NCBI GenBank assembly: GCA_964187785.1
Contig: OZ076417.1
Coordinates: 25,110,001 to 25,174,000 of the forward strand
Direction of reading: 5' to 3'
Source: Amphiscolops sp. MND2022
Taxonomy: Eukaryota
Length of the DNA: 64,000 nucleotides
Position 1 is the stretch's first letter. Each line of letters starts with the position of its first letter. Positions 901 to 34,900 of the stretch are shown piece by piece. The notes under the pieces were generated by a model. The model was not told where the DNA came from. It saw only the letters and a list, made by a program, of their open reading frames with translations, and searched no databases. The position numbers and the translations under genes are program-made.

Positions 901-2882
901 CAGGGTTGTCATGTTTTAAAACATGTTTTAAAACACGAGCATAAAAAACTGTTTTAAAACATGAGTATAAAACATGTTTTAAAACATTCAGACCCCTATT
1001 AGCATTGGTTGACTCGTATTCCAGATAAAGATATGGGACGAAAGGAGGACCCCATCTGGGCCTTTTTTAAGAAGATTGATGTTGACGGACGCAAGCGAGC
1101 GCAGTGCACACAGTGTCTGGAGGACATAGTCCCACTGGTCGAGCGAATGAGGTCGCATCAAGACAAGTGCAAGTCTCCAGCGGGTTCCGACGGCCCTAGC
1201 GAAGCGAAGAAGCTAAAACAGCAGACGCTGGGTTTCAAGGGGACAAAACAGGTCGAGCAACACGCCATCGATTTACAGTTAACCCGGTTAGTATGTCTCA
1301 AAATTTGATACCCGTAAAATAATTATTGTTATTGTTTATTATTATTTGTAATATTTAGTAATTATTTGTTGTTTAGGATGATTGTGGCAACAAACTCAAG
1401 CTTTAATGCGGCCAATAATAAGCAGTTAAAGAAATTGGTGGCAATGCTTAAGCCTGGGGCTATCATTCCGGATCGCCGCAACATCGGTGGAAATCTTCTG
1501 GATGAGATTTACGAGGAAGAGCAGGCCAAAGTGAAACATTTGATAAGTGGAATGAGCGCCACTATTGCAATCGATGGGTGGTCGACAATTACAAATCAAC
1601 CAATTATTGGAATCTGTATCTACGCGGCGGGGAACTGCTATTTAGTGGATACAATCGACACGACCGGGGATTCACACACAACAGAATTTCTGGTTGATTT
1701 GCTTCTGCATCAGATCGAAGAAATCCAGGAAAAATGGGAAGTCAACATAACTAGTGTTGTCAGTGACAATGCTGCAAACATGGCAGCCATGCGAACACGT
1801 ATCAAGGAGCTGGATCAAAAACTTCATACTTACGGATGCCATGCGCATATCGCTAACCTTCTGGTTATGGACGTGCTGAACACTACGGAATTCAAGTCAG
1901 TCTCCGGCAAGATCATGGCCGTTCTCAAGTTTCTGAAGCATACTCACGCTGGATCTTCGGCTCTTGCAGAGAAAAAACTGCCGCGACCCAATCTGCCATG
2001 TGAGACGAGATGGAACTCGTATTTGGACAGCTTCAGCTACTTTGTGACCCACTGGTCCTCTATAGCCGAGATAGTCAACGAATCTGGACTTACACGAACT
2101 GCGCTTGTCTACAGGAATATGGAGGAGATACAGCTCAAACGTTCAGCATCTGACGCATTAGCATTCCTGAAGCCTTTGGGTGATGCACTGGATCGCTTTC
2201 AGAGCGATTGCTGTACAATTGGAGAGGCGTACGAGATATGGCGCAAAATTGCTCAGCAAACCCCAGATCAATTTGCGATACATTTAGAGAAACGCAGGAA
2301 GATGGCAATAAATCCAGTGGTACTTGCAGCCAATCTGTTGGATCACAGGTATACAGGGAACGAACTCTCTCCGCTTGAAGTACAGGAAGCTATGGAATAT
2401 ATTGGCGAAATGGACGAACTCTATCTTGCTGAGACATCGAAGTTAATTGCACGCGATCAGCCGTTCGTGGAAAACTTGTTCAAGGAAGCATACAAAGAGC
2501 TTAAACCCGACACTTGGTGGAAATCCGGTGTCAAGATGGGATTCAATCCTGCCTTTGCGGAAGCAGCTGGAGCACTGGTTGCATCTGTGGCCTCCTCAGC
2601 TGGCTTGGAGAGACAGTTCTCAACGCTTGGCATGAGCTACGGCAAGCTCCGAGCAAATCTGGATTCCCAGAAGGCCGGAAAACTGGCTTTCTTGTACCGA
2701 CAGCTAAATGTTTAATTCAATATCGGATTGAATTCGAAGAATATTTTGCTGTAATTCTGTTTTCAATGAGCCATTGACCAAGTGGAGGAAAAAAACATAA
2801 AAAACCAAAAAAACGTGTTTTTTTCGATAAAATACATGTTTGTTTGTTTTTTACGTAAAAAACGTTTTTTATGACAACCCTG
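901..2882 (+). mobile_element. Complete hAT DNA transposon (1982 bp)
   Basis: Perfect 12-bp TIRs CAGGGTTGTCAT (901-912) and ATGACAACCCTG (2871-2882). Exact 8-bp TSD GAGAACAT at 893-900 and 2883-2890. Left subterminal AAAACATG/ACATGT arrays. Encodes a transposase. Confidence 0.95.
1033..2715 (+). CDS. hAT transposase with N-terminal BED zinc finger; join(1033..1286,1377..2715), ~530 aa
   Basis: BED finger (IWAFF...CTQC...H...C). A 90-bp GTTAGT...TTTAG intron (1287-1376) joins the two ORFs in frame. Catalytic motifs IDGWS, SDNAANM, CxxH (GCHAH), ETRWNS, LERQFS. Confidence 0.9.
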
Positions 2883-10910: not shown

Positions 10911-13900
10911 CTAGACATTGTAGGGAAACACTTTGTTGTGAGGTTGAGAAGCGCTGAGTCTGGGTTTGGCAGGCAGGTTTGAGACGTCCAACCAGACTGG
11001 GCTCCCGGCCACAATGGACTTTTTCAAGCGTAACAACCTGCAAAAATTAAGTCTAAATTAAATTAAATTTGATAAATCACAGTTTGAGATAATGAGATCG
11101 CCAACTTTAGTAGCTCTCCGGAAGCACTTCAGTCTGATTCCTTTTCGAACTATTCGTTAAGACTGATTCAAAATGAAAGGAAGACATGATCCATTTCTCA
11201 GTAATCTCATCAATTTTTCGTTTTGTGGTCTTCATATGGAAAGAAGGCTAATAAAGAAAAATAAAACTCTACCTTAACGAAAATACTGCGACTCAGTTTT
11301 CAGAGAACGAAAAATTACTTTCAACACGCGATCACTCAATGCGATCAAAACCTATTTCGCTTAGTCAAGAGAGAATATTTTGTAAAGATCGCCAGCTGGG
11401 AAAATTTGACTATGATCTTTAGTATTCCATCTTCCGGACATCTAAAAATACACAAAACTAAATTTTACATACTTTGTTCTTTCTTCGCTACCGTCTAATT
11501 TTCAGCCCATTTTCCATCAAGACGAAAATCTCTCGACCGAGACTTTTTTCCAATTTTTGCCATGCTAGTTTTAATGTTTTGGACAAATTTCAGTGTTTAT
11601 TGGCTAGGCTCGAGCCCTAAAATACGTTGTCGATTGAAAAAAGCAGAGCTGAAAATATTCAGGTGCTCAGAGCTGGCGCCTTGTTAAATATCCCAATTTG
11701 CTCGGCGTTTTTCAAACACATGAATACCAAGCGATACTGAAATCCGCCGTCTCTACGTGGCTTTACGTCTTGTGGTGAACTCTATTCTGAAGTTAAACTA
11801 TATCCAATGACAACCAGGTAACAAAAAAAGTGGTTTGTCTGGTCGTCGTTACCTGGGGTGACGAGGCCCACATAGCACCATGCAGCAATTGAGTATACAA
11901 CTGTGTCTGCTGAACGGACTGGTACCCTGTCTGTTCCTGTTGCACGGGGACCAGATGCCCCTCAACTCCTCCACCGTGGTCAACGCCAGACCCACTAAGT
12001 AGGTGTGCTGCATCACGAATGTGGCCACGCCCCCCAGAGTCAGGAAGAGCAGGGCGATGTTGATGAAGGTCACGGGCGACTCTCTGAAGGCCGACACCAC
12101 TTCCTTTTCCTTCACTACCACTGAAAAAAGCACAGCAATGACTCATTTTATCACAACAATGACTTTCATCAAAAAGGTAACATTTACAATTTACGTGAGA
12201 CAGTTCAGCTCACGAAGGAAATTTTGACTTAGAGAAGTATTGTAGGCTTGGCCGATAGTTTAATGATTGCAAACAAAACTGATTACTTCTTAGATTGTAC
12301 ACTTAAATTAAATTGCTACTACAAACCACCATAAAACTATTTGAAACCCCCTTTGAAAAATCATATGTATCCAAAAATTGGCATATTTTTTAACTGTTGA
12401 ATCTCAAGGAAAACAATTATGGAATTGTGTACAGCTTGAACTAGCCCGAGCATTGAGAACGTTCGTCTTGTGAATCAGATATGAATTATTGAGTCACAAT
12501 TTCGAGCCGGCGGATCAAAATCGGCTTTAGAGACTCAATTTGCAAGTTCTAAAAAATGTGAAGTGAAACTCATTGGCGAGCAGGAATAACGTCTAAATGC
12601 AAATCAAACAAGAATAACATCTAAATCCAAGTTATGCTCATTCCCTTTCCAATACATAGATTTTCAGACTTTGTTCCTTTAGGGTTTATTGCGCCCGTTA
12701 AACTCACAGTGCACTAAGTGGAAGACTGCAAAGCCGAAAGCGTAGACTAGGGCAAGAAGCATTGATGATAGAAAAAGATAGAAATGTCTGTAGTTGCGTT
12801 TGCCGATGCAGTTTCCCATGAAGGGACAATGGTGATCGAATACTTCTGAAACACAAAACAGTCAGTCACATTTCATACCTCACCAATTAACAAATCAAAT
12901 TAACACAAACCAGATACGACCAACAGAAAAAATGTAAATAAAAAATTATCAAAAGGCGCATTGACACGAATAAGGAAGTGCCATTCGTTTCATTTCACCA
13001 GCAAGTATTCTTGGCAGGTGGTGAAAAATCTGACAATATTATTTCAGCTTATTCTGTAAGAAAGCATCGTGTCTCGTCAAAACCTTTCGGCATTTGTCAC
13101 AAATACTATATTGAATACTAATACAAATATAAATACAAACAAATAGCCCACAAAATGGAATGCAGGACCCTTTGGATCATTTTGGCATTTTGCAGAATTT
13201 TTATGTTCACTTGGACATGATTGAAAAATACAATGAACTTGTAGAAAATCCACTATATTGGTCTCGCTTAATGTCATGAAGCGCCAACCATAAAAGAAAC
13301 GACTGTTACAAGCGATTTTGGTCTTAACTAAAAGCACCGACTAAAAACGCTGTATGATACAATTACTATCATTGTCGATTGTCGACCTGTCCCTTCTTAC
13401 ACTGGGGGCAATTTCTATCCATTTGAACATTGATGGTCTCTGAGCACTATAATCTATCTCAGCGGGGCATTTAGCCATTGGCCTTTACCGAGTTTGGCAG
13501 CATAGACCATCAGATCAGTAAAAACCGAGCACTACTGGACTGTCGGTTATCCCATAGACGGTCCAATAATTGACAGATAGGACACTAAAATAATAGTAGG
13601 TTTCTCACCGATACAGTTGTTGCAGCGACTGCAGTGAGATGCCCTGGGCGGTCTCCACAGTTTGCACGTGCTACACCACTTCTGCGACACCTCCACTCCC
13701 TGGACAGTCACATTCACCGGCTCGACGCCCAGACCGTCCACGTTCATGACTAAACAAACGCTGCTGAGCCGTGGAAAATATGGACCATTTATTCAATGAA
13801 TAGATTGTGGCTACAGAAATTGGCCGCCTATACGTTCTCCTCGCATTCGTATGCCTTGAAAAAAAAACAAACCGGGAACCTACTTAACGCTCAAAAAGCG

Positions 13901-16900
13901 CAAAACGTGTTTCGAAGCGCTAAGGATTTGTTTTTGAAACGCAAACAAAATAAGTCACACAGTGCCCGAAAGAAAACCATATATTGCTTTTTAATACAAA
14001 TAAATATCTTAGAAAATGAAAGGCAGGGCCCTTTGCATCATTTTGGCATTTTGAATACGAATCATTTTTGAACACGAAGTATTCACGTTACAATACCTTA
14101 ATGGCAAGGAAAAGTGAATGCTTAGTGTCCAGACATCGAGACAACTACAATTCACTTTTATTTCATTCAGGCTAAATCCCCGCAAGTAGTTAAGATTTCC
14201 GCCGGCCTTTCAACGGGGGGGTCCTCGGTTTTCACGGGGTGGGTCCTTGCTCTGAAATTTTAGGACCTATCCCTAAAAGGAAGGGGTCCTTCCAAATTGG
14301 TGTTCGGAAATACTTCGGCTTTTGACTACGAAAGTAAATTATTGGTCGGATTCTTTTTGTATTCGTTTTTTGGATTCTTTTTGTATTCGTTTTTGGAATC
14401 GGATTTTTGCGAAAGTACATGTAAAAGCGTAGACACTCTTGTTTATTCTATGAATGTCTGAAAGTTTGGAAAGTACTAATCTTGAAATTTTGTTGTAATT
14501 GAATTGTAAAGCTGGATTGACTAATACTGGTACAACTTTCTTGTAAATAAAGGGAGTGGTATTTCCAACTTTCTTATCTGTATGAACACTTAATATTATT
14601 AGGAATAGTAATATGCGTTCCTCCAAATGTAGTGGTAGCGGTGTTCTTATTTCTACCTGTAAAATATCTTAACTTCCCAACAAATTCGTTTTGAATCTAC
14701 ATGTTGTTGCTAACCCCTGACCTACCCAAGTTAAATTTAATATAACTGTAAACCACCATTCTTCGTTTCAACTCTTGTTTGAAAACAAAATGAATTTCAC
14801 AAATTCAAGCTTTATTATGCTGTTAACGTTATACAAAGAAAAATTAGTGAATGATATTACTGTAATTCATTATCAATATAAAATTTGAATTTTTTCTGAG
14901 GAGGGGGACCACGGGTGGGAACTTCCACTGCTTCACAGTCTAAAAATACATTTGGTTGGGTATTGGGTAAGTCTTCTTCGAAATCAGACAACTCTGTTAG
15001 GTCAATAACGTCTGGTAATTCACTTTCTTCTATTGCATCTTGATTAAGTCCAGGGTCGGGTGGGGAAAATAAAGCTGGTTGGTTGGAGTTTGACTGTATC
15101 GGTGACTGAATAAAGTCCTCCTCCTCGTCCCCCCAATCGCAATCCGCCCCAATTTCTCTGAATATTACGTCGTCTCGCAAAGAATAATGTCCAAAAGGTA
15201 AGGTATCAACGCCGTTTGGCATTATATATCTTTTATCGTCAAAACAGCTTAGAGAAATTTTTGTCGTCTGCAAGGTAAACAGATTATGTCTTTCACTATT
15301 TATTGTGTAGTTTAATGTTCTAAGTAGTGTTTCTTTTTCGAGAATTCGATAAAATACAGAGTGTTGTAGGTTCTTTTGTGCATGTTTGGTGGTTCCTTTT
15401 GCAGAAATTTTTTGTTGATCACCCATCGCGATTGAATACAATTTTGATTTTAGTGCAACAATGCTGTGTATGATTTTACCACCAACTTCGTCTTTGAATT
15501 TCAAAGTTTCCAACTTTTGATGTTTGGAATATAGTTGATTATCTTCTTTATAGTTTGAAAAGTCAAACTCTGGGTGCACTTGTTCGTTTTCTTTGAGGTC
15601 AGCGTATATGTCTTCCGATTCGATTTCATAAATTAGGGAATCTGTATCGGAGTAGAGCACTAATGTTCGGAAGTTTGGTTTCATGTACATGTAATGAAAC
15701 CAGTACATATGTCGTTTAGATAAATCCAAGATGGTAGCGCCGACTATCGTTGGCTTGTCCCAGTAAATTTTGCCCTGTGCAAACGTTATGGCAGCCAACT
15801 GGTTGTTGAAAATCTTGAACGTTTTCATCCACATTTTGCTTGTTTGCTTTTGCAACTCATCTTGCGTGCGGACAATCTCAATGGACAATCGTTTTCTTTT
15901 ACTTTCCATGGTTTTACAAAAAGCAGAGTTGCTCATTAGTTTGAAAAAGTTTTCTTCAAACTTGTTTGTAGACGCTTTTCGTTTCATTGTGTTTAACTGT
16001 ATATATGGCTGAAGCCATTTTGACTGTTCAAATTGCAACACTCTATGTACTTTGGTAACTTGTAACCCCAGTTCACAGTATAATTTCAATGTCATGTAAT
16101 GTATAGTATAATTGGTTTTGTCGTAGAGTGTTTGGATCAACTTTTTGTTTTTTGTTGAAAAGGTCTTTGTTCCACTCATTTCCAGCAATCGTGTTTGATA
16201 TTCACCGAGCCAAAAAAAATTAATTGTTTCCTTCGTAGGAGCCAAAGGGAAATCAGTGTGTAAATCGTGCAAATGATCAGGATAATGCAAGTCAACTTCC
16301 AATACATATCCAACTGGTGAGTCATTTGGAGTATTTAGTATTTCTTGTGGGTCAACTTCGCCTTCTCTTTTCAATACAAAGTTTTTTAAAGGCAAGGGGA
16401 ACTTTTCCATGATTCCTCCATACAAGTTGTTTGCATCAATAAACAACCCAAATGTTTGCTTCTGTGAAGAGTTGTATGTTGGTAGATATTTGTTATTTGC
16501 TTCAAATTTGCGTTTTGCAAACACGGAAGAAATTCCTCCGCGGATTAGGTTTTCAGCAACTTCAAGGTGTTCTCGATTAGTTAGTAATTCGATATCTGCG
16601 TTGCACACTTTAAGGAAGGCTTCACCGGACAAATTTGACGCGGTATAAAAATGAGCACAATCCAGTCCGTAAGTTGCATAACACACTTTTCTAAACTCTT
16701 CGAATACCGAGGCCAAAATCAAAACATCGGTGTGTAAATATAAATCGTGATAGTGACCTAGTGTTTTGCAATCAAACTCTTGGTATACAAGACTAGCATG
16801 TTGTAAATCCTGATCACTAATTGTGACTTCACCCCCTGCGAGAGTGTTTTTCCAAAACTCTTTTGGGGGAAGCTTTTCCTCGGCAAATTTATCGAAACTG

Positions 16901-19900
16901 TCCATGTATGAATAGGGATAAACACCTTTCCTTTTCAGCAAGTCAATTTGCGACGGTGTTTTGTATGTATTGAATTGACTCTCCAGATAAATGAATTTAT
17001 CCTGTGGTAAGAAACCCGCCAGTTTATCTAGTGACTGGGGCATGAACTTGAAAGAGTCCAAGAATCGCATGTCTTCATATACATTTTTTGTCATTCCATT
17101 CTTGTCAGTATATGAGTTTACCCACACAGAAAATGTGAAGGAAATGTACTTTTCGTCAGTTGTAGGTATAACTGAAAACTTGTTCTTTGGATTACAATTG
17201 TTGATTGCCGAACAAATGTGGTGTATATTGTGTAACTATTTATATGTTTTCAGATAAGTTTTGTATCTTTGTATTTGGTGGGGTTTTGCGTAATTCAAGT
17301 ATCCGTACAAACACGGTTTTTACATGGTAGCAGGATGACCAAAGACTCCAAAACCCCACCAGAATGGACCTCTGACATGAGTTACGAAATTTGGAAATCT
17401 GAAGTTGAAATTTGGGATGCTGCGACCACTATCAGTGACTCAAGAAAAGCACCAACGGTGGCATTGTCGCTTACTGGGGCTAAGCGTGAAATTGCACGGA
17501 ATATACCATTAGAAGAATTGAAGGCCAACGATGGATTGCAGAAATTACTTGATAAGCTAAAAACAAGTTTTGGGCAAGATGAGGATGATAAACTGTTCTT
17601 TGATTATTTACAGTTTGAAAGATTCTCACGTGGAACAAAGTCAATTTCTGATTTCATAACTGAATTCGAAGCCCTTCATAACAGGTTGAAGAAGCACAAA
17701 GTTGAACTTCCGGATGTTTTGCTTGCTTGTAAATTGTTATCAGCAGGTCAATTTGATGATAAGGATACGAAGTTAATTCTCTCTGCAACTTCAAAGCTAT
17801 CCTTTGAAAATGTCAAGGCATCAATGCGGCGTATATTTGCATCAACAGTGAACGCGAAAACACAGAAATCGAACGATTCCACAATTGCTGTCAAAGAGGA
17901 ACCCGCCCAAGAAAATGTCCTATTTGGTAATACCCAGAGTAGATTTCGTTACGGAAATCAAGAAAGAGGTCGCGGGCAAACGAATCGAGGATTCCAAAGA
18001 GGAAGAGGACGCGGAACAAATCCAGTTTTGAAGGATGGACGAGTAACAACTTGCAATTTTTGTGGTTCTCGCTTCCATTTTCAAAAGGACTGCCCGGATA
18101 AGCAATCAGTGGCGTTAGTAGCTGACAACGATTCGGAAGCAGACGAACAATCATACCCCGTAATGATAATGATTACGTCAGCCTTATCGAAGGAAGCTAA
18201 TAAAATGGCTGTTTTGGACAGTGGATGTAGCAAAACAGTCTCTGGGCAAGAATGGATTGACGACTACGTCAAGCACTTGAAGCCTGAAATGCTAAAATTA
18301 GTAAAGAAAACAAAATTTTCCTCATCTGTGACTTTTGGAGGTGGTGAAAAGTGCAACGTTTACGTGCAGTACCATTTACCAATTGTGCTTGGTTCGCATA
18401 TTCGAATTCTAGAGGTAATGAGTATTCCAGGCAAGTTGCCACTATTATTGAGCACTCAGTCTATGAAAAAAGCTGGATTTGTACTCAATTTTATTGAAAA
18501 CACCATTTTAATGGCGGATGGAACAATAATTCATTGCATTGAATCGTCTACCGGGCACATAATGATTGACCTAAAGCAGGAGCAGAACACTTGTCTTCAC
18601 ATGGAAGTCAATAGTAAAGAAATTGACAAGCTGCATAAACAATTTGGTCATTGTAGCGCAGAAAAATTGTCGCAACTTTTGACATCGTCGAAAAGCCAAT
18701 TCAATGAGCGAGACATCAAGGTTACAGTCGAGAGCTGTAAAGTGTGCAGGCAACACGGAAGATCAAGGCCGAAACCTGTAGTATCTCTCCCATTGGCCAC
18801 AAAGACCAACCAAACCATTGCCATTGATCTGCATCAAATAGTTGAATTGGGACCATCCGTTTGGTATATTCATATTATTGACGTTTTTTCCAGATACAGC
18901 ACAGCAACTCTTATTTACAATAAGCATGCAGAGACTATAATTGAGGCAGTACTCCTTAAATGGTGCCTTATCTTCGGTTTTCCTAAATCGTTTCTGACCG
19001 ATAATGGTGGAGAATTTGACAACCATCAGTTCCATGAATTTGCCGAAAAACATGACATAATTGTTAAAACTACTGCAGCGTACTCACCTTGGTCAAACGG
19101 CGTAGTTGAAAGACACAACGCGATAATCACCGAAATGATGAAGAAAATTTTGGCAGATCCAAGTATTAAAGCCAAAAATGAAACCGCTCTTCAAATGGCA
19201 ATCTTTGCGAAAAATTGTTTGATAAACAACGATGGCTTCGCTCCAATACAAATAGTGCTGGGCGAATTACCAAGACTGCCGTCAGTACTTTCGAATCAAC
19301 CTCCCGCATTGGAACCCTCTTCAGTCAGTGAAGCAGTCGCAAACCACCTAAATTGTCTCATTGGAGCACGTAAAGCCTTTCTTGAATGTGAAAACAGTAC
19401 GCGTATTAAGCGTGCCTTGAAAGCTAACATCCGTTCCGACGATGGCCCATTTGAAAATGGGCAGAAAGTCTACTATAAGAGGGACCACGAGCAAGATTGG
19501 CATGGCCCTGGTGTTGTAATTGGTCAAGACGGCTCAGTGGTTTTTGTACGACACGGCGGACGCTTTCAAAAAGTCCACAAAACTAGGATTCGACGAGTAA
19601 ATTGTGAAAATCTGGAGTCACAAAATACCATATCTCCAAAAGAAACAGATATGAAACATGCAACTGAAATGAAGGAACCAGAATCTGACTTATCTACATC
19701 AGACGAGGAGTCCACAAACGTCCCCAGAGACAAGGAATTGCAAAACGACACAACACAGAAAGTTCAAATTGATAAAGCGATTAATCCGGGTCCAGGCAAG
19801 TTGATTAGCTTCAAATCCTCTCAACCAGGTTTTGAAGGGAAGACCATTGAAGCCAAGATCGAAAATAGAGGAGGGAAAGCCACAGGAAAGCACAAAAACT

Positions 19901-22900
19901 GGTGGAACGTCACATATAGTGCACCCCAAGAATTGGCTGGAAACAAAGATTGTATTGACGTCTCAGAATTACAGGAAGCCAGCATAACTAACGTCCTAAT
20001 TGAGAGTTCTGACGAGTTCGCCACTGCCAAACAAGATGAAATGAACAATTGGCTGAAAAATGGAGTTTTTATTGAAGTAAATAACGAGGGACAACGCTTT
20101 ATGACGTGCAGATGGGTGCTGACAGTGAAGCCAAATCGCAAGAAAGCCAGACTCGTGGTTAGAGGTTTTGAGGACCCGGACATGGATTCACTCATTAAAG
20201 ACTCACCGACATGTTCTAGAGATACATTTCGCATTGTTGTGACCATCTGCGCAGCAAAAAATTGGCAATGCCACTCAATGGATATACGAACAGCCTTTTT
20301 ACAAGGTGCTCAACTCAAACGAGACGTCTTTCTATTGCCTCCAATCGAAGCCGGCGTTCAAAACAAGCTATGGAAGTTACAAAAATGTGTTTACGGGCTA
20401 AAAGACGCCGCACGGCATTGGTATGATCGCTTGAAACAAGAAATTATGAAAGCTGGATGCGCCGTTTCAAGGCTAGACCCTTGTCTGTTCTACAAAAAAA
20501 ACGCCCAGTGTGGGCTGATGGGAATTATTGCAACACATGTGGATGATTTCTGGTGGGCAGGAACCTCGGAGTTCGAGGGCAGTGTCATTGAGACGTTAAA
20601 CAGTGTTTTCGAAGTCCGCACACAGGTATCGACCCCTTTCAATCACCTAGGGTTCAATGTATTACAAGGCAAGGACACAATTACTTTGGATTTATCGGAT
20701 TATGTCGAAGAATTGGCCGAATTACCCGTCCCATGTGAAGATTTTGTCAAACTGGATGAAAAAGCAAAGATGAGGTCACTTTTGGGGAAACTGCAGTGGA
20801 TTGGCGGCCAAGCAAGACCGGATTGTTCATATATTTTGAGTCGATTACTCTCCCTCGAAAATTCATGGACGAAAGAACATTTTCTTACTATCAACAAATT
20901 AGTTAGAAGGCTTCGGTATTCAAAAAGGGACTGCCGTCTTGTGTACAACAAGACTCTTGACACAAACAATTGGACGATTATAGTTTTTAGTGATGCATCT
21001 CTGAATAACCTCCCCAACGGAGGTACACAGGCCGGTCACATCATATTTTTGGGGCAACCATTGACATTCCCTTGTTTATTAAATTGGAAGTCGCAAAAAC
21101 TACGTAGAATTGTCCGGAGCACGATTTGTGGGGAGACAATCGCTTGTGTTGACGCTGTAGATGCAGCATACCTTTGCCAATGTCTTCTTAAGGAATTACT
21201 GGATGTAGAAATCCCAATCAAATGTTACACAGACAATAAATCGCTGGTGGAGAACCTCTACTCAACCAAAATTCAACAGGACCGCAGATTAAGAGTAGAA
21301 ATTGCTTATTTACGTGACATGATCGACGGAAAAATCATCGACGAAATAAAATGGGTTCCAACTGTTCAACAATTAGCTGACTGTATGACGAAATTGACTA
21401 ACGCAGCAGCTGACCGATTACAGCAATTTATTAATTCTCCAGCTCCAAAGTGATTTTTTATCTTTTGAATGTGATATTCGATATTTATTGTTAGTCAAAA
21501 CCTACTGTTGCGCAAATGAATTCCAATGTATTTTCATAAGTTGTTTCCGGATATAATATATTGATTTTAATTTGCAAGTTATAACCAGGGAAACACACGT
21601 AAAATAATCCTTATGTTATTTATAATGTATTCATTTTAATTTCTGTAACGCCGTTGTGCAGCTTGATGCGATTAATTGATCAAACGAACGAACACATTTA
21701 AATTAGTGCTGTTAATTCATTTCCTCTTCACTTGGTATAAAGAAACTACCAGCTCACGTTAACCATAACTCATCATCCTTAAACTCGAACAACCATGCCA
21801 TGAATTATTGCAATTTAAAGTTGGAGTGTATGTGTAACTATTTATATGTTTTCAGATAAGTTTTGTATCTTTGTATTTGGTGGGGTTTTGCGTAATTCAA
21901 GTATCCGTACAAACACGGTTTTTACATATATCATATCCAGCCATGTTGTGTGCTATCACGGGGGTGAAGTTTATTGACTTCCTTTGTAGATTACATTCTG
22001 AATGTGCCCACCCTAGGAATGTACCACTGTAATGACAATGGTCCAACACTTTCTGCTCGTCATTCGTGAAAGGTTTTTTACAAATCCAACAATCATTTAC
22101 ATTGTCTTTGTGCGTCGAAGGCTTGCCCTTGTAAATTCGGTGACTTTGTTTTCTATGATAAATGTCTGTTGCCAATTTTTCCAATTCTTTTATTAAATCG
22201 TCCAAGCAATCGGGACCTCGCATGATTCTGTAAGACAAAACTTTATCATTTCCATGTTCTACAATTACAAAAGCATAACCACAAGGCACATGTTTTTCCA
22301 ACTTTACTTGACTGCTAATACTGGGTGAAGGAGCGCATGTAGATAAAGGCACTAGGAGCGCTTCAGTATCAAGGTGAATAACCAGTGGAACAAACCAAAC
22401 TGCTCTTGTATTTTTGAATTGATGTATGTTTTTATGCTCATCGGGTAAAATGATCGCCGCGGCCTCGTTTTCGTAACAGTTGAGCTTGTGTATTTCGAAA
22501 CTCCCGGTTGAACTACAAATATGAAAACAGTTTCTGCAAATTTCATCCCTCGATCTACTTTGTTTATTTTTCAAAAAGTTTACAAAATGTTTCAAATCAG
22601 TAATCAGTACGTAGTGATGAGAACCTCCTTCTGACAACAATAAAAGATCCATGATAAAGTCACTAGGGAATTTAGAGACTCTGAGAGGTAACAAATCTTT
22701 CTTCTCCAATATAAACACATTGACTTGGACTTTGTTGAGTTTTTCGAATCGTTCAAGTTCATGAAACGGCATTGGCATCCGAAAGTTGCCTGCATGCTTT
22801 TTTGCCAGAGGATTATATGTAGGATTATAAGTGCCTGGGTTTGTTTTGCAGCGCCACGAACTTGTTTCAACCAATGGTATGTCTGTGTGCAAGTGGTAAG

Positions 22901-25900
22901 CGGCCGTATAACAATATATAAAGCAATTCTCACCTTCAATGTTCCGAATATTGAGTAGTGAACTACAACCTTGAAGTTCATTTGGAAGTGCGATGTAAGA
23001 GCTACCCCGAATGGGAGAATAGGATGTAAATTTAACAAAAAGGTTTTTAATTTCGGACAAAATCCACCCACTTCCTTGGGATGCAAAAGTAAATAAAGCT
23101 GAAGTAAGTTGTTCTATCAATTGATAATAGTCGTTGTCTGTGATCCCATAAAAGTAAACTGGTTGCAACTTTGTGTTGGTATAAATTGTGATTGTCTCTT
23201 GAGAGTCATCATCAACTTTCGGTTTAACTAACTTCAATTCAGTTGTTAATTGAAATTTCTTGGGTCCATTGCGACATTTTTCTCTAATAAGGTTTTGTAT
23301 TTGATTTTTTTCCTTACAAAGTAGTTCGAATAAATCAATTGATGTGATCCTTCGCTTGAGTTGATACGTTTCCAATGATCCCCAAAAGGCTTTTTCCACC
23401 TGTTGATAACCGGTCATTCTTTCGATGTTGTCATTTTCGCGGGGTGTAAATATTGTTGGTAAACCATGATCATGCTCAAGATGATACGAGTATTTCATAG
23501 CTTCACCGTAAACTATGTTGCAATAAAGGCAATGATTTACTATTATATGTCCATGTTTTTGTAAAAAATGTTGTTTCATCGTATTATGAAATGAAGTATC
23601 ATCATCACCAATTATGGTATCCCGAGAGACTGGATTTCTTTAAATTTTGATTCGACCACCTTTTACGGTATTCCAGGCGCCATGTTTTTTCCAGGAAAAT
23701 TGTATGCATGTTCGACTAACTTTTTTGTTTCCGTATATTGACTGCTGGGCATTATAGGGGGGGAGGAACGGGAATTTTTTTATTTTTTCAAAAAGGTCAA
23801 ATTTTCCATGCACCCCCCTTTTTCGAATTTCATTTTTTCAAAATCGTCTTGCGCACCTACCTGCAAATTTTCAGACCGATCCGACCAACAGTTTTTGAGA
23901 AAATTGACATTTTTTGTCAAAAAATGGCATTTTAAAAAAATGCATTTTTGGTCAAAATCTCAACACTCGGTAAAGCTAGCGCCCTGCGGTTTTCACCAGC
24001 GTTTTCAGCGTCCTCTTTTCTAGTTGTGTGCCAAATTTTGGCTCCGAAACTTTTTTCAATGTTGAGAAATGTTTGTTTTTTTGACCGAAAATGATCAAAA
24101 ATTGAGTTTAAAAAATGTTCAAAATCTCGTAAACTACGCGACTTTTGAAATTTACTCCTGTGGAAAAGTCTTGTAAATTTTTCACAAACTCAACTCTCAA
24201 ATTTGGTTTCTAAACAACTTTGACTGCTTGAACAATCAAATTTCGCCTATAATAGAGGAGTGCAAAGTGAATTTTTCCATTTTTTCAAAAAAATCAAAAT
24301 TTCCATGCACCCCCCTTTTTCGAATTTCATTTTTTCGAAATCGTCTTGCGCACCTACCTGCAAATTTTCAGACCGATCCGACCAACAGTTTTTGAGAAAA
24401 TTGACATTTTTTGTCAAAAAATGGCATTTTAAAAAATGCATTTTTTGGTCAAAATCTCAACACTCGGTAAAGCTAGCGCCCTGCGGTTTTCACCAGCGTT
24501 TTCAGCGTCCTCTTTTCTAGTTGTGTGCCAAATTTTGGCTCCGAAACTTTTTTCAATGTTGAGAAATGTTTGTTTTTTTGACCGAAAATGATCAAAAATT
24601 GAGTTTAAAAAATGTTCAAAATCTCGTAAACTACGCGACTTTTGAAATTTACTCCTATGGAAAAGTCTTGTAAATTTTTCGCAAACTCAACTCTCAAAAA
24701 CGATTTCCTAGGCTACTTTAAACAGAACTCTGCATAAAATGTCTTTAAATTTCGACGTGGTTAGTAAGCTTTTGACAGTATTTGGTTAGATTGGTTAGTA
24801 AGCTTTTGACAGTATTTGTTAGATTGGTTAGAATCGCTTCAAAAGTTTCTTTTCCTGCTGTTTTGCCTTCTTCACTGGTGGTGGCTCCAACGCTGCAGTT
24901 CGAGTACTATCAGGCGTCACAATTTGAGGACTCACTGTTAGATCATCACCATCTTTCGTCTCTTCGTCTTCTGTTGTACAGACCAGAACTTCTGGGGAGA
25001 CTTGTGGTGATGGAGATTCAGGATCATGTTCAACTCCCCAAAAATCTTCAAGTGAATCAACTTCCCTGAAGAAACCCATTTGATTCTCCGTTAATGGAAC
25101 CATTGCGCAGTCGTCTCTACATAGGATGCGTTTGATTTGTATAGGTAGCATTCGTAGGTCACAACGATGAAGACTTTCTATATCCCAGTTAGACGCTGCT
25201 TCACAGTCCACAGAGTCAATCTTTCTCTTTCTTTCCAGAATCGTCTTTTCAGTCGGTTGTTTGCTCAACTTGTGATAGACCATGTTTGGTAACAGAATAT
25301 GTTGCTTTGTTTCCCACCGGTCATTTTCGTCAGACCTCATCTGTTCAATTATTGAGAGCGCTTTTTGAAATTGTGTTTCATAAATGATGAAGCGTTTGCT
25401 TGTAAAATGTGTAAAGACAGTAGCCATAGTTGAATCGTCGACTTGGACAAGACCAACTGTTTGAGCGGTAGCGAATTTATCGAATAACGGCTTGAGTTTT
25501 GAACGCTAGTGAATCTACAGTTTTTTGTTTCTCACGGTGGTCCGATTTCCACATGGTAACAATGTGTTTTGAATTATTACATTGAGTCTATTTTGATTTT
25601 TCAGATGTTTTGAATTTTAACACCAGTGTCGTGGCCTGGGCGTTTGCTGTCTACTTGAAAGATCAACGTGGGTGGCAATGATCTTGATTTATCAGTCGGC
25701 GGTGCAAGCGTTTGTTGTTTACATGAAAGATTAAAGCAGGGTGACCAAACCTTGAACCATAAAAGCCCGCCCACCTCAGACATTGACCTTGCAATATTTA
25801 CCAGGTTCTTCATACTTTTGATTTTGTTTCCAACATTCAGAATGTTCTCTGGTGATTTTACTCTTGCTAAGGACGAGGATTTTGGAGACTATTACTGTGA

Positions 25901-28900
25901 CTTATCAGAAAAATCCAACAGAATATTGCGAGCAACGGTGAAAACATACGAGCATACAGGAACCTACGTGTTTCTAAAACTCTTCAAAAAGAAGCCAGAC
26001 GCCGAATTTGCTCTGGTTCAAAAAATCACGTTGACAAAAGAAGAGTTTGAAATTCTACTGTGGAAAGGAAAATCAGTTCTACAACCGTCGAATATAAAAA
26101 AAGTTACAAAAAAGTGCAAAAAAATTAAGAAACCCTCATTTGTTGATTCTGTGGCGGAGGAGGATGACGGGGACAACGTAGACGGAGAAAACAAGGAGAA
26201 TATTGATCCTAGAAAGTATGGTGGAAGCAATGTTTGAGCGTTCTCCCGATTACTTTAAGCAATTTAGAAAAAACTTTCGCTTCTTTTTATTCAAGGAAAA
26301 ACCCAAAGCTGGCGTGGACTTCCCATTAGATGTTGTTATTTCCATTGGCTTACACTCACCTGTGCATGATGGGCTTTGTAACGCTTTGCCAGACAATCAC
26401 TATCATGTTTTGGCCCAGTGTTTTGGTGAAAATTATAAAGGGCAACCCAAAAGTTATTTATTACCATGTTTATATTCAACCTACGCCTTACTAATTGCAA
26501 ACAGTGATGAAAAGGAAAGATGTGGTGAAATTTTTGAAAAATTGGATCAAGCCGTTCAATACAATTGTGACCCTCCTAATCGAAACCCAAAGAAACTTTT
26601 GCCATCAATCTGTTTTTCTGTTCAAAAATGTGACAAGGCTGTGCAAGTCAGCTCTGGGTTGAGTCAAGGAACAATACAACGCTTGGAAAATGTTATGCTT
26701 GGACCGTATGGTGGTCATTTCCTACTCATTGCTGATATTTTTCAAACTGGTCACGGATCGCTTAATTTTGTGCCTGTACTAACCTTTTCTCTGAATGAAA
26801 TTGTTTGAGAATAAAAATGTTTGAAATTAAACATTAAATTACATGAGAGTTTTTACAAAGCGAAGCAAATCAGTTTCAGAAATGTAAGAAATCAATGGAT
26901 AATACGAACTTAACAAAAAATGAGCAATATAAATACAATACAAACCACACAAGTTTGAATTTTGATTTTGTAACGGCGTCTTTGTGGCATCTTTTAATGT
27001 CTGCTGAACTTGGATTGGTATCGCGGAGATTCTTTTAGCAATATTAGGATAATGTAAAAATAGGTCTAGTCCAAGGGGATCTGCAAAGTTGAAAGTACCT
27101 TTCACGTTGCTCCAAACAATCCAATGTTTCCCAGCGCTGTTTGAGTTTTCTGAATTGACAATTACAAAAGTGTTGTTGGGTAATAGGATAGGAAACTTGT
27201 CTGCGGGATAAATTCCTCCAAACTTGTATTTCAATCTTGGGCTGTTTTTTATTAGGTGGGCAATGTAATCTTCATCCATTTTTCAAGTGGTAGGGTTTAA
27301 CATGACGTTTTTGGAGACTTTTCTATGAGAGTCAATGTAAATTGTTGATGCTTTTTCGCCCAACAGAAACACCTCAGTGTTCACTGCCAGCGCTGCTGAA
27401 AACTTCAACTCGAGCGAAATGGCAGCGTTAGTGAGCTCAGGATAAAGAAAATCATGAGATGCTTGTTGGGTGCTAGTCAGGTCAAACACCATTACAAAAT
27501 GATTAGCATAGTCGGCGAAAGGAATTCCATGTCCATGATGACCAAAGGCGACAGCATCCATTGTTGACATGTAAACTCGTTTCAGATCATCTGTTGCCAA
27601 AGGAGTTCCTGCAACAGGGTATCCATTCCGGTAAACAGTAACTTCGTTTAGGTTATGTTTTTGGTAATGAAATGGATTTGTGTCTTTTGAACCAAGAAAA
27701 GACGCATTACTGACGAGCGCCAAAGCGAATCGTCGAATTGGTTCTCGACTGAAAACGTCTTCCTTACTCCAACTGCGACTACCTGTCGGAATGAGAAAAG
27801 TTTTGGGTAGAACCTCTGTGTACCGATACAGAGCTGGAGTTTTTGTCAGAGTTTTCTCTATGGCTATGAAAACCTGCTCAGAAACTGTCATTTTCCGGAC
27901 GTAAAGATTGGCTTGGGTAATGGTAATTTTGTAAATTTTTGCAACGTCATCATGAATCAAAACAAACTCTGGTTTCGAACGGACAAAAGAAATTCGCAAA
28001 GTCACTCCACTCAGTAAATGTTTATCACAAGAAAATACATCAGCTGCAACTTTTCCAAAAAATGTTAATTCTCCAGACTGTCTCGACTCCAATTCTCTGT
28101 TTGTAAATGGAGTTGTTGTACTGTTCCCAGGATGCTGCTCATATGTATATCCTTGGCAACGTAACCATGTATCTTTGGCTTCCTTGCCATTCGAATATTC
28201 GGTTTCAATAAAGGCCTTGTGTGCGTAAACACCGTTTGCATTGGAAATTTTTATTCCATTAGCAGTAACAGTGCATTCGGAGAATAGAGAGTGTAATGTA
28301 TTATTCACAAAAATAGGAGTGTCTGTTTGTGTTGGATCCGTTGCATCATGTCGTAAGTCATTTCCATCGCTTGTTTAATTTTGCATTTTATCTCGAGAAA
28401 AATTTTTTGTAGGTCCAAAAAATTATTTCGGTCTCCTACAACTTCAAATTCCAATGTTGGTCCATTGGGGGAGTAAATCGGGCCAATCTTTTGTTCAAAG
28501 GAAGAGTCAAATGTAATCAAAACTGGTGATCGCTCAAAAATGTCGAGGGAACTATGTGAAGCTTCGAGTGGTAAAATATTAGGCAACATTTTTGACTTTT
28601 GAAAAGAAATCGGACCGACTTCTCTGTTTGCGTTTTGATTTCGTAATGGTTTTTCGTTTCTTTGAAGAACGTTTGCTTTTTCCACCAATCTGCTTCTTTA
28701 TCGTCTTTTTCATGGCTGTTTTAGCAGCCTCACGTGGCGATTTTCGCTTTGCAATAACATCAAAGACCTCAGGGACACTTTGAACGAGCAATTCTTTGCC
28801 AATTTTTTTGCAGCAGGTAAAATAAAATTTTTTGCAAAGGGTAAAGCCACTCGGCCAATACCGGCTGCCAGTGCACCAATTCCACTACCTCGTTGTCTGT

Positions 28901-31900
28901 TGTAACTGGCGAAATGGGGTAAATACACTTGCTTTGAGTAATAGTCTTCCATTAGGCGAATTTTTTAAATTTTAGGGTCAAAACAACTTGACCTTTACCA
29001 CAAAAGGGTACCAGGATCCCAGTCTCTGTTCTGAGTTGAATGCTTATTGTTTGAATATTTTGAACCAACAGTTTCTTGCATTGTAAATCAAAAAATGATC
29101 TTGTTTCCAAATTCTGGGTTGTCACGACCTTGCCACTTTCAACACGTTTCCCACTATCAATGATTCTCAAAACGGGTGCTTTTACGTCGCCCGTGTTTTG
29201 ATATTCAATCAAATCAGTGTAAACAAGAATTAGACTAATGCCAGAAATCAAATCCACCGGAAAGTCATTCACAACCCATCTACTGTTCAGGATGTCTTCG
29301 TTTCCTATATGAATACCAAAAGCAGTCTCTTTTCCCTTGAATCCAAGTAGGTTGGGAATGTTTCTGTTAGGAAAAGTGTAGCCAGCATATGCATCAAATT
29401 TAATTTCTAGGCCATTTTCGGTGGATCTATGTTTACCGTCTTCCGTGAGTAAATTTACTTTTGAACGCATTTCAAAAAGTAGGTTGTTGATATGACTGTA
29501 CATCGAAGGTCTTATCTTTAGTTTTTGATAATATGGAACAACTGGTTCAGAGTCAATTTCAATTTCCTCTGCTTTTTCTTCATCAATTTCGTCAAGGTTT
29601 TCTTCATCTTCCTTCTTTTTGGTAGTGTGAACGTAATAAAAAAGTCTGTGTAAACGTTATTAATTTCCGAGGGAAAAATAATTTCTGATAGAGCCACACG
29701 CCAGTCGCCTTCCAGGGAAATATTTTGTGGGAGTTGATTTTTGAATGCTGCCAATGTATTGTCACCAAAAATTTCTAATGACGCTGTGGATAATAAATGA
29801 ACTTCAAATTCGTCCATTTTTCTTTTTCACCAAAATCAATTCAGGCTGATAAAACTTGCCCAAGAGTTTTTCCTTCTCAGAGTCCAGTGAGTTGTAAGTT
29901 GGGGGATTGAGAGTTGCGATTTTTTCAATTTGAAAAATTTCGTCGGTAAAATTCTGTTTGTAACCTTTTTTGAAGGGTAAGTTTTCTTTTGACACTCTCA
30001 CAAAGTCACCGACTCTGAATTTCGGCACTCGTAGCTGTTTAGTGGACTTGTAAGAAACCAGAGAAATCAAATGAGGTACATCTTTATCTGAAACCTTCTT
30101 TGGAGCCAATCCTGTCACTCGGTTTACTCGTGAATTTATGATGTCAACAAAGTCATGGAGTTTTTTGATGTATTGATAAGACCATCTCTTTTCCAAATGT
30201 TTATATATAATGTTTTTTAGAGAACGAATATTACGTTCTGCAAAAGCAGATTTTGTCTCACCATGAGTGCTGTAAATGTCAATGTTTTTGGAATCGCAGA
30301 ACTGCTTAAATTCCCCTTTAAACTCTGATCCCTTGTCTGACCAGATTTTTTCGGGAATGGACTTTGTTATCATTCTTTTGAATGCTCTTGTTGAATCTGC
30401 TGCACTTTTTGTTTTCATTGGTTCAACCCGTAGGAATCTCGATAGTACATCAACTGCAACTAGCAAGTATTTCACACCGTTGTTGTATTTTGCTAATTTG
30501 TCCATATAAGCAACATCTATCGACCAAATCTCATTGATTCTGTAAGCTTGAACCTTCAATCGTGGAAAATTTTTTCTGGGAGCGTGATATTTTGTATGAG
30601 CGTCTGTTTGAGCCAAAAATGTTTCCACTTTCCTTTTTGGAAGCTTACTAGCTTTTTTCAAGTTTTCAACGCTACCATAAGCAGCTGGACCTTGTGTGTA
30701 AAGTTTCTCGAGGGTTTTTCTTTCAGATTCCGAGAGATGTCCATATTTTCGATCCAGACGCTTTGCTTTTAGCAATTTCTTCAGATTCTTCGTTGCAGGC
30801 ATCTGATTCGTCTCGAGTGGGTTCTGCTCTCTTTCTTGTTGTACTAGGGTTCAAAATGTTTTTGGCGTTCCGGTTAGGCACTAAATTAGGATTTACCATC
30901 AATTCTTTAAGAATGATAGAGTATGAAGGATCAGTTAGGTTTTTGTTGGGTTGCTGCAGATTATAAAGAAATGTTGAGAGCGAAATTTTTGTGGAAATTT
31001 TGTTTACTGTAATATCGCCTGTTTCATCAAAATCAATTGTTTCGGAAGATTCAATTTTGTTCAAAATTTCTCTCGTTCTTTGTTTTTGTGCCGCTGTGAG
31101 CATATCCAAAGACTTTAAAATATTTTCTTTACTGGTTTTTTCTTTCTTTTCTACTGTTGAGGGGTCCGGAAAAGTATTGTTTCTTTGCAGTAGAGTGAGA
31201 GACTTTGCCTTTTGTTCAACTTCTGGGTCTCTCAAAACTTGCAGTGTGGAGTGTTTCTGTTGAATATAAAAACTTTTTGAGATAAGTACAAATTCTTGGG
31301 TGTTCATAACGGAATTCAATCTGTCAGGTAACAGAAACAAGGCCGAATAATAAAGTTTAACAATTTGAGACCTTTTGGTGACATTAAAATTTTTCTGCGT
31401 TCCTTATTGGAGGTAGACCTTTTACAAAGTAATCTGAGTTGGATTTCGTACTGTTTTAATTCGTCCACGTTGATACCAACCGTTCCATTCACAACACTGA
31501 TTGCACACTCGCAACAAAATTTGAAAAATTCCTTGTCACAATGTCGTAGAAGTTTTTGTTGCTGTACTGAAGTGAGTTTTTCCAAGAGACTGAGTGTATG
31601 CAAATTTTTCTCGCTCATTGTTAATTTCTGTAATTTTTGCTTGTGACGAAGGCAAATAAAATATTGTTGGTCCTGGTCCTACAATGTTTGAACAAAAGCG
31701 TAGACATTCACTTGTCTTTGGATCCAAATCAATGAGTAAATGACCATGTGGTTCTGCAACAGCGTCTGTGTAGCACTCTTTTAGAAATACAGCTTTGTTT
31801 AATTGTCTTCCAAGATATTCAATTTGCTGTGTGTCACGAGGAGAATTAAAAAGAATAATGTGGGTTGTGTTGAGGTCAATTGTACGTGACCACTTACTTT

Positions 31901-34900
31901 GATGATACAAATTATGTTTGACAAAAATACAGTTAATTCCTCTGTGTCGGCCAGAGACTGCAATTTTTGCAAAGTTTTTATCTTGGTAAATTTCTTCGCA
32001 AGAGTCGTCAAATATCAGCAAACACTCCTGAAGCGTCTTTATCAAATCAAAATCCAGACAACTGATAAACTCGATGTTCATCCGTTTTTCCACTTCTTTG
32101 AAAATTTGTTGGAACTCGCGATAAAAGTAGTAAATTTTTTGAAAGCGTGGATAAAAGGTCTTGGATGTGAGCATAGAAAAAATCAGTCGGGTTTTTCCAG
32201 ATCCAGATGGTCCAACAACTGACATGAAAACTCTTTCTGTAGTAAAAATGATTTTGTTCATAATTTTGGGCTAGGTAAAAGATATCCAACTGATCCAGCC
32301 AAAAGTGATGTCCAAAGTGGCATGTCTTCACATGATACTTCAAAAAAGATTAGTTTCACCAGACAAATTGTTATCACAAAGAAAGCTGAGAATACATGAA
32401 AAAAAATATAACTTGCGATCGTGGTATGTTTGTAGCAAAACAAAATTTCCAGGCTGGTCTCTCATTATTATCTTTATCGAACACAATTTCTTGACATGAT
32501 AATACATCTGGTAAATCAACTGTTTCTGAACCCATTTTTCAAAAAGTGTACTACGAAATTATTAAATTCAATTCCAGTTAATTGTACATTATTACACACA
32601 CGTTGTATATCAGAAATGGTTCAAAATTGTTAAATAAAATGTTAGTACAAAAGATACAAAAAAAATGTACTGCGGAACATCATGCATTGTTTCCTTAGTA
32701 CGTGCCGGACCTTGTGTGTCGTTTACACAAGTTTTTTGTTGGCTGTCAATGTTGAGGTAGGTTAAGGTGCAGAGACAAGATTTTTCTTGCCATTGAGGCA
32801 CCGAAGGACTACACTGCAGAGAGAGTTAGTTCCAAAACAAAAAAAGCATTATATCAAATCACACAAAAAGTCAGTTCAAACTTTTGCTCCTTGGTAAGAC
32901 GAATATTCTTTGGGTTTCCAGCATTATAAATGAATTCCATTCTTTATCTTTTGTTTCCAAATCGATTTTGAATTTTGAGCCAGTTTTCCCAGATCCGTAA
33001 TAGAACCAAATTCTGAGGACACTTTTGGATTTGACTACGTCCCTCACTTCTTGTGGTAGATTCGGGCAATTTTTGTCAATTTCGACAGGAGGAGGTGGCC
33101 TGGAAATGTGCATGTTTAAAGGAGGTAGTTTCTTTTTCATCCTGGAAAGTTTTGAGTCTCGTGCACTAGAAGCTACTGACATATTCTTTCCAAAAGTCCT
33201 GCTTGCTTCCACCACACCACTATTGTTTGGAACAGCCTACACACAAACGCTCAAGTTTGGAGTCAACTTTTGATTGGTTTGCATTGCGCCTACTCTCTAA
33301 CCACTGATAAGCAACAGCAGTTTTCAATTTGCTGCAATGCCAGAAATGTTGTTGTTGACTATTCCATGGGAGAAAGTTTGCGTGGTTCCCACAAGAAACC
33401 ACAGCATTAACACATTAATGGTTAATTGGGGGACAACCAAGCCTTTGCAAAATGTAAACTTTTTTAAAATAGTTGGAGATAAATGCTCTCTTCACATGTC
33501 CGTCGACAAAAACAATTGCGTTGGGAAAACGAAGTCGTAAACTGGCCAAATAGTTATGGATAGAAGTGTAAGGGTAAACGCCACTGTCCCAGTCAATACC
33601 GTGTATTCTTTTTGTTAAGAATATTATCGAGTCGCGGTTAATAGTTGAAATTGTGGAAATGGCTTGAGGAGGTTTAAAAAGTAGGGTTTCTTGATAATTT
33701 TTACTGTGAACGCTCAGCTCTTTAACGATAAGACCGTTGTAGTCAAACCCTTCAAAGTCAATAACAAGAATTTCGTTCTCATTCAACATTCCAATTCACG
33801 GAACCAGTGGGCTTGTGCTGAATATTTGAGTTTCAAAATGCTCCAGAGAGGGCGAACTGAGCATGACCAAAACTTTTGCAATCTGGTTCTTCTATCCAAG
33901 CAGTCACACACGTCACTAAACGTCCCCATAAGCTCTTGCGAGTCGCGAACAATCACAAATAATCTGTACACTTTGCAATACTTGTAGAAAATTTCACATT
34001 TGATTTCTGGTTCTTCTTTCAGCAAATATTTCAAATGGCCCAAAGTAATGTTGTTGAAGTTGCAATTTTTTAGATATACCAAACAAAAACTTAGCACATA
34101 CTTTTGATAAGTTTCGAATTTGTCTGAATTGTCTAATGAAAGTCTATGAAAAGTTTGCTGCACTTTTACAACGTCTATTTTTTGGGGGTCCATTTCCAAT
34201 TTTGATTCTCGATTCTCAGCATTCCTTCCTGCTGCTGATATTTGCTTTATAATGAATTTTTATCAAAACACGTTCGTAACATCAGACGAATAATGCATTC
34301 GAACAAAACTGTACATAAATTTCACACCCTCTCGTACCCTATTAAACTTTGGTGTGAATTATACGACAAACTAGATTACTTTTTATTGGCCGATCGATCG
34401 CTTGGCACAACAATACTACAACCCGACTTAGTTGTTGTACCAGTATTAGTCAATCCAGCTTTACAATTCAATTACAACAAAATTTCAAGGTTAGTACTTT
34501 CCAAACTTTCAGGCATTCAAAGAATAAACAAGAGTGTCTACGCTTTTACATGTACTTTCGCAAAAATCCGATTCCAAAAACGAATACAAAAAGAATCCAA
34601 AAAACGAATACAAAAAGAATCCGACCAATAATTTACTAGTCAAAAGCCGAAGTATTTCCGAACACCAATTTGGAAGGACCCCTTCCTTTTAGGGATAGGT
34701 CCTAAAATTTCAGAGCAAGGACCCACCCCGTGAAAACCGAGGACCCCCCCCCCCGTTGAAAGGCCGGCGGAAATCTTAACTACTCCCGCAGACTCTAGGT
34801 ATTTATTACTTACTACACATGGAAGAGTGAATAAATGCTTACCATGCTTGGACTTCATGTACTTGAACTCGTCTTGAGTGGCCCTGGGCAGGATTCCGGG

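Follow-up and report, generated by a model that had tools for sequence, protein, structure and literature searches.

A Ty1/Copia retrotransposon of 4,698 bp (17229-21926, + strand) lies inside the protein-primed DNA polymerase gene (PolB) of a 20.6-kb Polinton, which in turn lies within an intron of a host gene encoding a DHHC palmitoyltransferase. The nest is found in a window of 64,000 nucleotides from Amphiscolops sp. MND2022 (assembly GCA_964187785.1, contig OZ076417.1, positions 25,110,001 to 25,174,000, forward strand); unprefixed positions are those of this window, and all copy counts come from this one assembly of 1.07 Gb. Very probably, a young Copia of a low-copy, host-resident, GalEa-like lineage landed untargeted in PolB after the Polinton had settled in the intron, and is likely to have stayed there since.

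The Copia element and its insertion site

Both long terminal repeats (LTRs) of the Copia are 96 bp long, have TGT...CA ends and are 100% identical. The direct LTRs ending in TG...CA and the duplication of a 5-bp target are those of Ty1/Copia elements, as is the gene order gag, protease, integrase, reverse transcriptase (RT) and RNase H (RH), read from the position of rve ahead of RVT_2 in the open reading frame (ORF). Along this ORF are a zinc knuckle CX2CX4HX4C (aa 240) in the gag part, the protease motif LDSG (aa 294), the integrase HHCC (aa 434) and rve core (aa 489-585), RVT_2 (aa 918-1127) and the RNase H end ADxxTK (aa 1348). A weak purine-rich stretch just 5' of the 3' LTR (21817-21830) may serve as a polypurine tract. 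The primer binding site (PBS) has a final base that doubles as the A of the gag ATG (window 17236-17337). The 5' LTR is in frame with gag and free of stops, but it offers no upstream ATG, and the leader must be shorter than about 100 nt.

The Polinton (14185-34784, AGTAGT ends) carries genes for a protein-primed PolB, a retroviral-type integrase, a capsid protein, a protease and a packaging ATPase, the set found in Polintons/Mavericks. Terminal inverted repeats (TIRs), a 6-bp target duplication and AG...CT ends also belong to the features of these elements, and all three were found; the TIRs measure ~350 bp, with 345 of 350 aligned bases identical. PolB was identified by its motifs together with a 0.97 feature match to DNA_pol_B_2 clusters, and its 3' part had no match in Pfam, PHROGs or PDB. 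On the - strand, the exonuclease motif HNMAGYD begins at nt 21950, and the junction with the Copia, which runs on the + strand, follows directly after it. A genome-wide search for the PolB motif adjoining the junction gives 61 exact matches, namely this copy and 60 sisters. Sister copies were compared using 29 copies fetched of the 39 other matches listed, and in all 29 both PolB flanks adjoin each other colinearly, with the 5-bp target as their sole overlap.

An earlier reading made from the sequence only had described a Copia with identical LTRs, antisense in PolB after HNMAGYD, within a three-level nesting of host gene, Polinton and Copia. The first part is confirmed by the LTRs, TATAT at both ends, the ORF and the 29 empty sites, and the second by the TIRs, the target duplications and the DHHC exons on both sides. 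The same reading held that removal of the Copia restores the PolB frame perfectly. At the junction the sister flanks join at the 5-bp target, but "perfectly" was too strong a word, since the PolB 5' end and motif B are broken as well.

The composite occurs at a single locus

A degenerate LTR core pattern has four matches genome-wide, two in the window element and two in one further copy on C3 (the C3 copy), and DNA searches with the Copia 5' end and the integrase region returned the same two family members. The C3 copy is 91% identical, frameshifted and flanked by its own CCCCC target; no match to this Polinton was found in the 49 kb around it, and no Polinton protein match in its 10-kb locus. 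When the LTR pattern was set against the PolB junction motif genome-wide, none of the 60 sister Polintons contained the Copia LTR, and the composite of Polinton and Copia is present only at this locus of the assembly. The sequence-only reading had suggested that the Copia hitch-hikes between hosts in the Polinton, and had proposed mapping the family for enrichment inside Polintons and looking for the same insertion in other Polinton copies. Neither check bore this out: the second family copy is decayed and outside Polintons, no sister shares the insertion, and the wider clade shows no excess inside Polintons, as detailed below. Random insertion of the family together with a combination confined to this locus was the outcome that the reading itself had named as removing the idea, and by this test hitch-hiking fails.

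The Copia clade shows no excess inside Polintons

Fifty-five Copia loci, each taken as a 10-kb stretch, were assembled from 40 relatives found by RT search, the C3 copy and 14 of 18 added candidates (L219, L221, L225 and L226 were dropped as they gave no Copia match). The Polinton queries were the ORFs of the window Polinton and of three other families found along the way. A match in L236 was the Copia's own integrase, and integrase-only or 60-nt matches in controls L247 and L136 were left uncounted. One of the 55 loci lies inside a Polinton (L110), two contain a Polinton (L099, L093) and 52 show neither arrangement. Among random 10-kb control windows, 2 of 53 fall within Polintons, which take up about 16 of the 530 kb (~3%); these two also supplied some of the queries. 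At this background about 1.6 of the 55 loci would be expected inside Polintons, and the difference between 1/55 and 2/53 gives a Fisher p of 0.61, or of 1.0 after adding the ascertained window case. A preference for Polintons of the kind seen in Ngaro elements is thus excluded for this clade, whereas a mild excess is compatible with the counts. Neither strong enrichment nor a composite at several loci or hosts, the marks of a passenger like type-1 Ngaro, was found in this one assembly.

The single nest among the 55 was revealed when a divergent Polinton family, recognized with Pfam in control L130 (L131 is related), was used as a query. There, a Copia relative with 145-bp LTRs (L110:3167-7858, with L218) splits a gene of this family, which has ATPase, integrase, capsid and PolB-like genes and is abundant, occurring in 2 of the 53 random windows. 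The Copia family concerned is also found outside Polintons (L109, L224), and a four-copy family of near-identical Copia elements (L104-L107) has no member inside one.

Two reverse nests were found as well. At about 21.036-21.055 Mb of C6 (L099:8018 to L120:7428) a Polinton of another family lies inside the 3' LTR of a Copia relative, and at about 18.346-18.364 Mb of C10 (L121:5598 to L093:4168) a Copia relative is interrupted close to its gag-protease boundary by a Polinton from a related family. Such nests are to be expected where two kinds of element are both active and untargeted in one genome. In the C6 case the ORF of the Copia relative is open and the rest of its LTR resumes past the far TIR; the Polinton begins with a small ORF (L099:8377-8775) that has a hydrophobic stretch and what we take to be an EGF-like cysteine pattern. 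A preference of Polintons for retroelements was considered and rejected, as retroelement domains lie within 2 kb in 2 of 40 sister flanks (L207, L209), and LTR-element domains occur in 4 of 66 control stretches (L129, L150, L154, L156). None of the 40 sister Polinton flanks gave a Copia-protein match.

A GalEa-like lineage, apparently resident in the host

Directly after the 5' LTR, the position at which GalEa elements carry their PBS, the window Copia reads TGGTAGCAGGA, which matches 11 nt of the 3' end of host tRNA-Met. The same TGGTAGCAGGA is present in 35 of 35 relatives scored, whose PBSs match host tRNA-Met over 11-18 nt. Published GalEa elements are described as having a "strictly conserved" PBS, TGGTAGCAGAGC (PMC5445492; PMC3587641); here the first 9 of 9 nt agree with it and the sequence then follows the host tRNA. 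As the primer site matches host tRNA-Met, as in all relatives scored, the lineage looks resident. Locus L116 (C8, about 62.09 Mb) holds a tandem array of at least nine tRNA-Met genes with a 3' end unlike that matched by the published GalEa PBS, and it is this end that all 35 scored primer sites follow for 11-18 nt. These genes are presumably initiator-like.

All three metazoan GalEa motifs CX2CX4HX4C, HHCC and ADxxTK occur in the window Copia, while KARLVV, HVDD, ARPDC and DSG are read where the GalEa motifs are KARLVA, YVDD, TRPDI and DTG(C/A). An RT/RH tree of 97 sequences, built from an input that included 44 of the 120 database homologues listed, groups the window Copia with the C3 copy, a Symsagittifera-containing cluster and the genome's own families (support 0.98-1.0), together with animal homologues (Symsagittifera, Mytilus, a fish) and far from Tnt1-type Copia. 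On these sequence features, and with a tree of database homologues and the genome's own families, the element appears to be a new family that we file as GalEa-like and not as a member of GalEa. Its best database match is 55% identical over RT/RH, so that nothing points to a recent transfer out of any distant host yet sequenced; the nearest named relatives are Symsagittifera roscoffensis proteins (48% overall). Two other Copia families of the genome have database proteins 98-99% identical to them (P0002 to L076; P0004 to L082).

Age of the insertion and condition of the Polinton copy

The Copia had been called very young. The absence of differences between 96-bp LTRs by itself bounds divergence only to <3.1%, and as identical LTRs are found in 15 of 40 Copia relatives of the genome, its youth is not special. 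A tighter limit comes from the host Polinton copy, which has 33 private substitutions in 11,622 compared positions (0.28%); because the sister Polintons lack the Copia, this is the better upper bound on its age.

The Polinton copy bearing the Copia is a decaying one, with private lesions beyond the insertion. At the PolB 5' end, 20 nt remain of about 343 nt present in 29/29 sisters, and 543 codons separate the first Met from Exo II; in 5 of 13 scored sisters the figure is 592, and the remainder are broken or cut. Motif B near 15.9 kb carries a private change, unlike the 38 of 38 sisters scored, and the capsid gene is split into two frames near 28.3 kb, the longest being 363 aa compared with 471 in 7 of 10 sisters. 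The alternative offered by the sequence-only reading, that the insertion simply inactivates this provirus, is supported.

Sister copies also vary in a ~498-bp unit upstream of PolB, present in fewer than two to about nine copies among sisters that are otherwise 95-99% identical (L157, L158, L162, L164, L166). Length-outlier sisters were considered as further nests and rejected, the seven fetched being tandem-unit expansions or internal duplications, apart from L159. This sister carries a 407-nt non-coding insert (L159:1133-1539) with ~26-bp inverted ends, resembling a miniature inverted-repeat transposable element. Two sisters lie directly beside host genes, one next to a MARF1-like NYN/RRM gene (L212:1430-3283) and one next to an exon of an ATP synthase subunit (L215:3197-3568).

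A probable chance landing and its alternatives

Reverse transcription primed by tRNA-Met and a 5-bp staggered cut by the integrase are established parts of Copia biology. In the sequence of events that we favor, the virus-like particle of a resident Copia would have made cDNA primed by host tRNA-Met, and its integrase would have inserted the product with a 5-bp stagger at an AT-rich site that happened to lie in PolB, probably later than the integration of the Polinton. That targeting was by chance is argued by the lack of excess inside Polintons; given that Polintons make up ~3% of the DNA sampled, some 55 copies should include about one nest of this kind. The donor would be a copy absent from the assembly, either on the other haplotype, in another individual or since lost. 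Persistence would be favored by little cost to the host, the target being a selfish element in an intron and the Copia lying antisense to the host gene, and the split polymerase would leave this Polinton copy unable to replicate by itself.

Several points weigh against this account. The enrichment test is small, with a 95% interval of 0-9.7% for 1/55, and Polinton families unlike the queries could have escaped in both arms. A second Copia of the same clade is found inside a gene of another Polinton family (L110/L218). No young donor copy is present in the assembly, the sole family relative being 9% diverged and decayed; this is the one loose end, although orphans are reported to make up 35% of the Copia copies of an animal genome on average (PMC11889832). 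The evidence base is a single assembly, and a Copia as old as the host Polinton copy would keep identical LTRs with a probability of 0.58. The order of the Copia insertion, the Polinton integration and the other lesions appears unreadable from the sequence.

The missing donor, together with nearly identical Polinton TIRs and about 60 near-identical sisters that could supply proteins in trans, leaves room for an unlikely course of events: insertion of the Copia into a Polinton at another locus or in another individual or close species, followed by a single copying of the composite with sister-supplied polymerase and its integration here. Trans-complementation is raised in PMC12220804, there too as unlikely. 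Against such a single ride, the assembly holds no second composite, orphan young copies are usual for this clade, the PBS fits a host tRNA and the Copia nests among resident families; in addition, the composite measures 20.6 kb as opposed to about 16 kb for the Polinton alone and may exceed the capacity of the capsid. In a broader form that we consider very unlikely, the polymerase-dead composite would be copied, and perhaps packaged, by the proteins of the ~60 young sisters and re-integrated, which would make animal Polintons vehicles of LTR retrotransposons between individuals or close species.

Preference of the clade for Polintons, with spread between hosts in the manner of type-1 Ngaro elements in endogenous virophages, is highly improbable. 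Two nested cases occur in the genome when the ascertained one is included, and there are precedents for such a preference (PMC8547959) and for possible viral carriage of introners (PMC11957031), but 1/55 against a background near 3% largely refutes it, and in both nests the insertion disrupts a gene, which is contrary to a passenger's needs. Moreover, IMG/VR viral contigs gave no LTR-pattern match, and 61 pattern hits examined by RT alignment included no relative; among 79 metagenome Copia loci, most of them short and distant, none had a match to Polinton capsid, ATPase or PolB. Mis-joining of a Copia contig into a repetitive Polinton is a negligible prospect: a large, 99% identical family can trouble assemblers, but each junction bears the exact 5-bp duplication of the sisters' single target, something that faulty joining would not produce, and the Copia itself is unique within the assembly.

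As it stands, the nest is a clear case of mobile elements within one another, and its Copia represents a new GalEa-like family with a primer site that tracks an unusual host tRNA-Met. If another locus or another host turned out to carry the composite, this would be direct evidence for the movement of retrotransposons by animal Polintons and for the mobilization of broken copies in trans.

Features of the window and the host gene

Coordinates are collected in Table 1. One end of the Polinton lies ~50 nt from the splice donor of a host DHHC exon (window 34790-34843), and the host gene shares its orientation with most Polinton genes. Four other stretches of the window (1318-2715, 41761-44757, 47806-51017 and 54682-58528) hold other mobile-element remains: a hAT transposase; fragments of Gypsy-type integrase, protease and RNase H, which come with a 1,663-bp duplication; and a long interspersed nuclear element with endonuclease and RT pieces.

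Table 1 Features of the Copia, the Polinton and the flanking host exons (window positions; TSD, target site duplication; UTR, untranslated region; DJR, double jelly-roll).
Feature	Position	Strand	Remark
Downstream host exons, CxxC...RPPR...HCxxC and DHHC motifs	12780-13760	-	bounds approximate
Polinton TSD CCCGCA (6 bp)	left 14179-14184, right 34785-34790	+	
Polinton left TIR, AGTAGT start	14185-14536	+	
PolB (protein-primed) 3' part: Exo III, polymerase motifs A, B, C	14857-17228	-	
Copia TSD TATAT, left	17224-17228	+	sequence comparison with sisters
Copia 5' LTR, 96 bp, TGT...CA	17229-17324	+	
Copia PBS TGGTAGCAGGA	17325-17335	+	11 nt complementary to 3' end of host tRNA-Met
gag-pol, single ORF, 1,372 aa	17335-21453	+	stop-free
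Copia 3' UTR	21454-21830	+	
Copia 3' LTR	21831-21926	+	same sequence as 5' LTR
Copia TSD TATAT, right	21927-21931	+	sequence comparison with sisters
PolB 5' part: Exo I DTE, Exo II HNMAGYD, weak endonuclease-VII-like zinc finger	21927-23639	-	
Private deletion site, PolB 5' end	23584-23603	.	20 nt, about 343 nt in 29/29 sisters
Tandem block, ~498-bp units	23760-24698	.	
Adenain-like protease	26839-27282	-	Peptidase_C5, E 4.8e-5
Major capsid protein gene	27283-28697	-	feature match to DJR-like clusters, 0.97
ORF adjoining capsid gene, probably minor capsid protein	28952-29656	-	position only; no family match
Polinton retroviral-type integrase	29804-30850	-	rve, E 5e-11
Packaging ATPase	31536-32270	-	Pox_A32, E 2e-6
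Polinton right TIR	34434-34784	-	
Host DHHC palmitoyltransferase exon, MDPG motif	34843-35000	-	upper end approximate

Comparison with known systems

As described in PMC5445492 and PMC3587641, the GalEa elements GalEa1, Zeco1 and CoRex1-2 share with the window Copia TGT...CA LTRs, a 5-bp duplication, one large ORF, a length below 5 kb, the motifs CX2CX4HX4C, HHCC and ADxxTK, a tRNA-Met PBS right after the LTR, a variable polypurine tract and a low copy number. The window element differs from them in its host-tracking PBS, and its 96-bp LTRs are shorter than those given for CoRex1-2 (133-217 bp). Our literature search, which was mostly at title level, found no GalEa-like element in an animal Polinton, a weak negative.

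The Ngaro nests of Cafeteria (PMC8547959) likewise place a retroelement in an integrated, capsid-coding DNA element of a host genome. According to that report, about one in four endogenous mavirus-like elements (EMALEs) is hit and 91% of type-1 Ngaros lie in EMALEs, whereas here 1 of 61 Polinton copies is hit and 1 of 55 Copia relatives is nested; Ngaro elements use a tyrosine recombinase and the window Copia a DDE integrase. Most introners in dinoflagellate viral elements are reported to have been gained once the element had integrated, and viral transfer would fit a subset of them (PMC11957031). As characterized in PMC8502044, animal Polintons/adintoviruses have the genes seen here (PolB, capsid, adenain-like protease, retroviral-type integrase and packaging ATPase) together with the TIRs and the target duplication, but in the window copy PolB and the capsid gene are no longer intact.

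A further parallel is found in cryptophyte Polinton-like viruses, where nested retrotransposons, including a Copia in a Guillardia theta virus, are described and where inactivation, shuttling and help in trans are discussed (PMC12220804). There, too, an LTR-type element breaks a critical viral gene; those hosts are protist Polinton-like viruses, in contrast to the animal Polinton with PolB and retroviral-type integrase found here. Retrotransposon nests in Polinton-like viruses are already published, and the window case is ordinary in mechanism.

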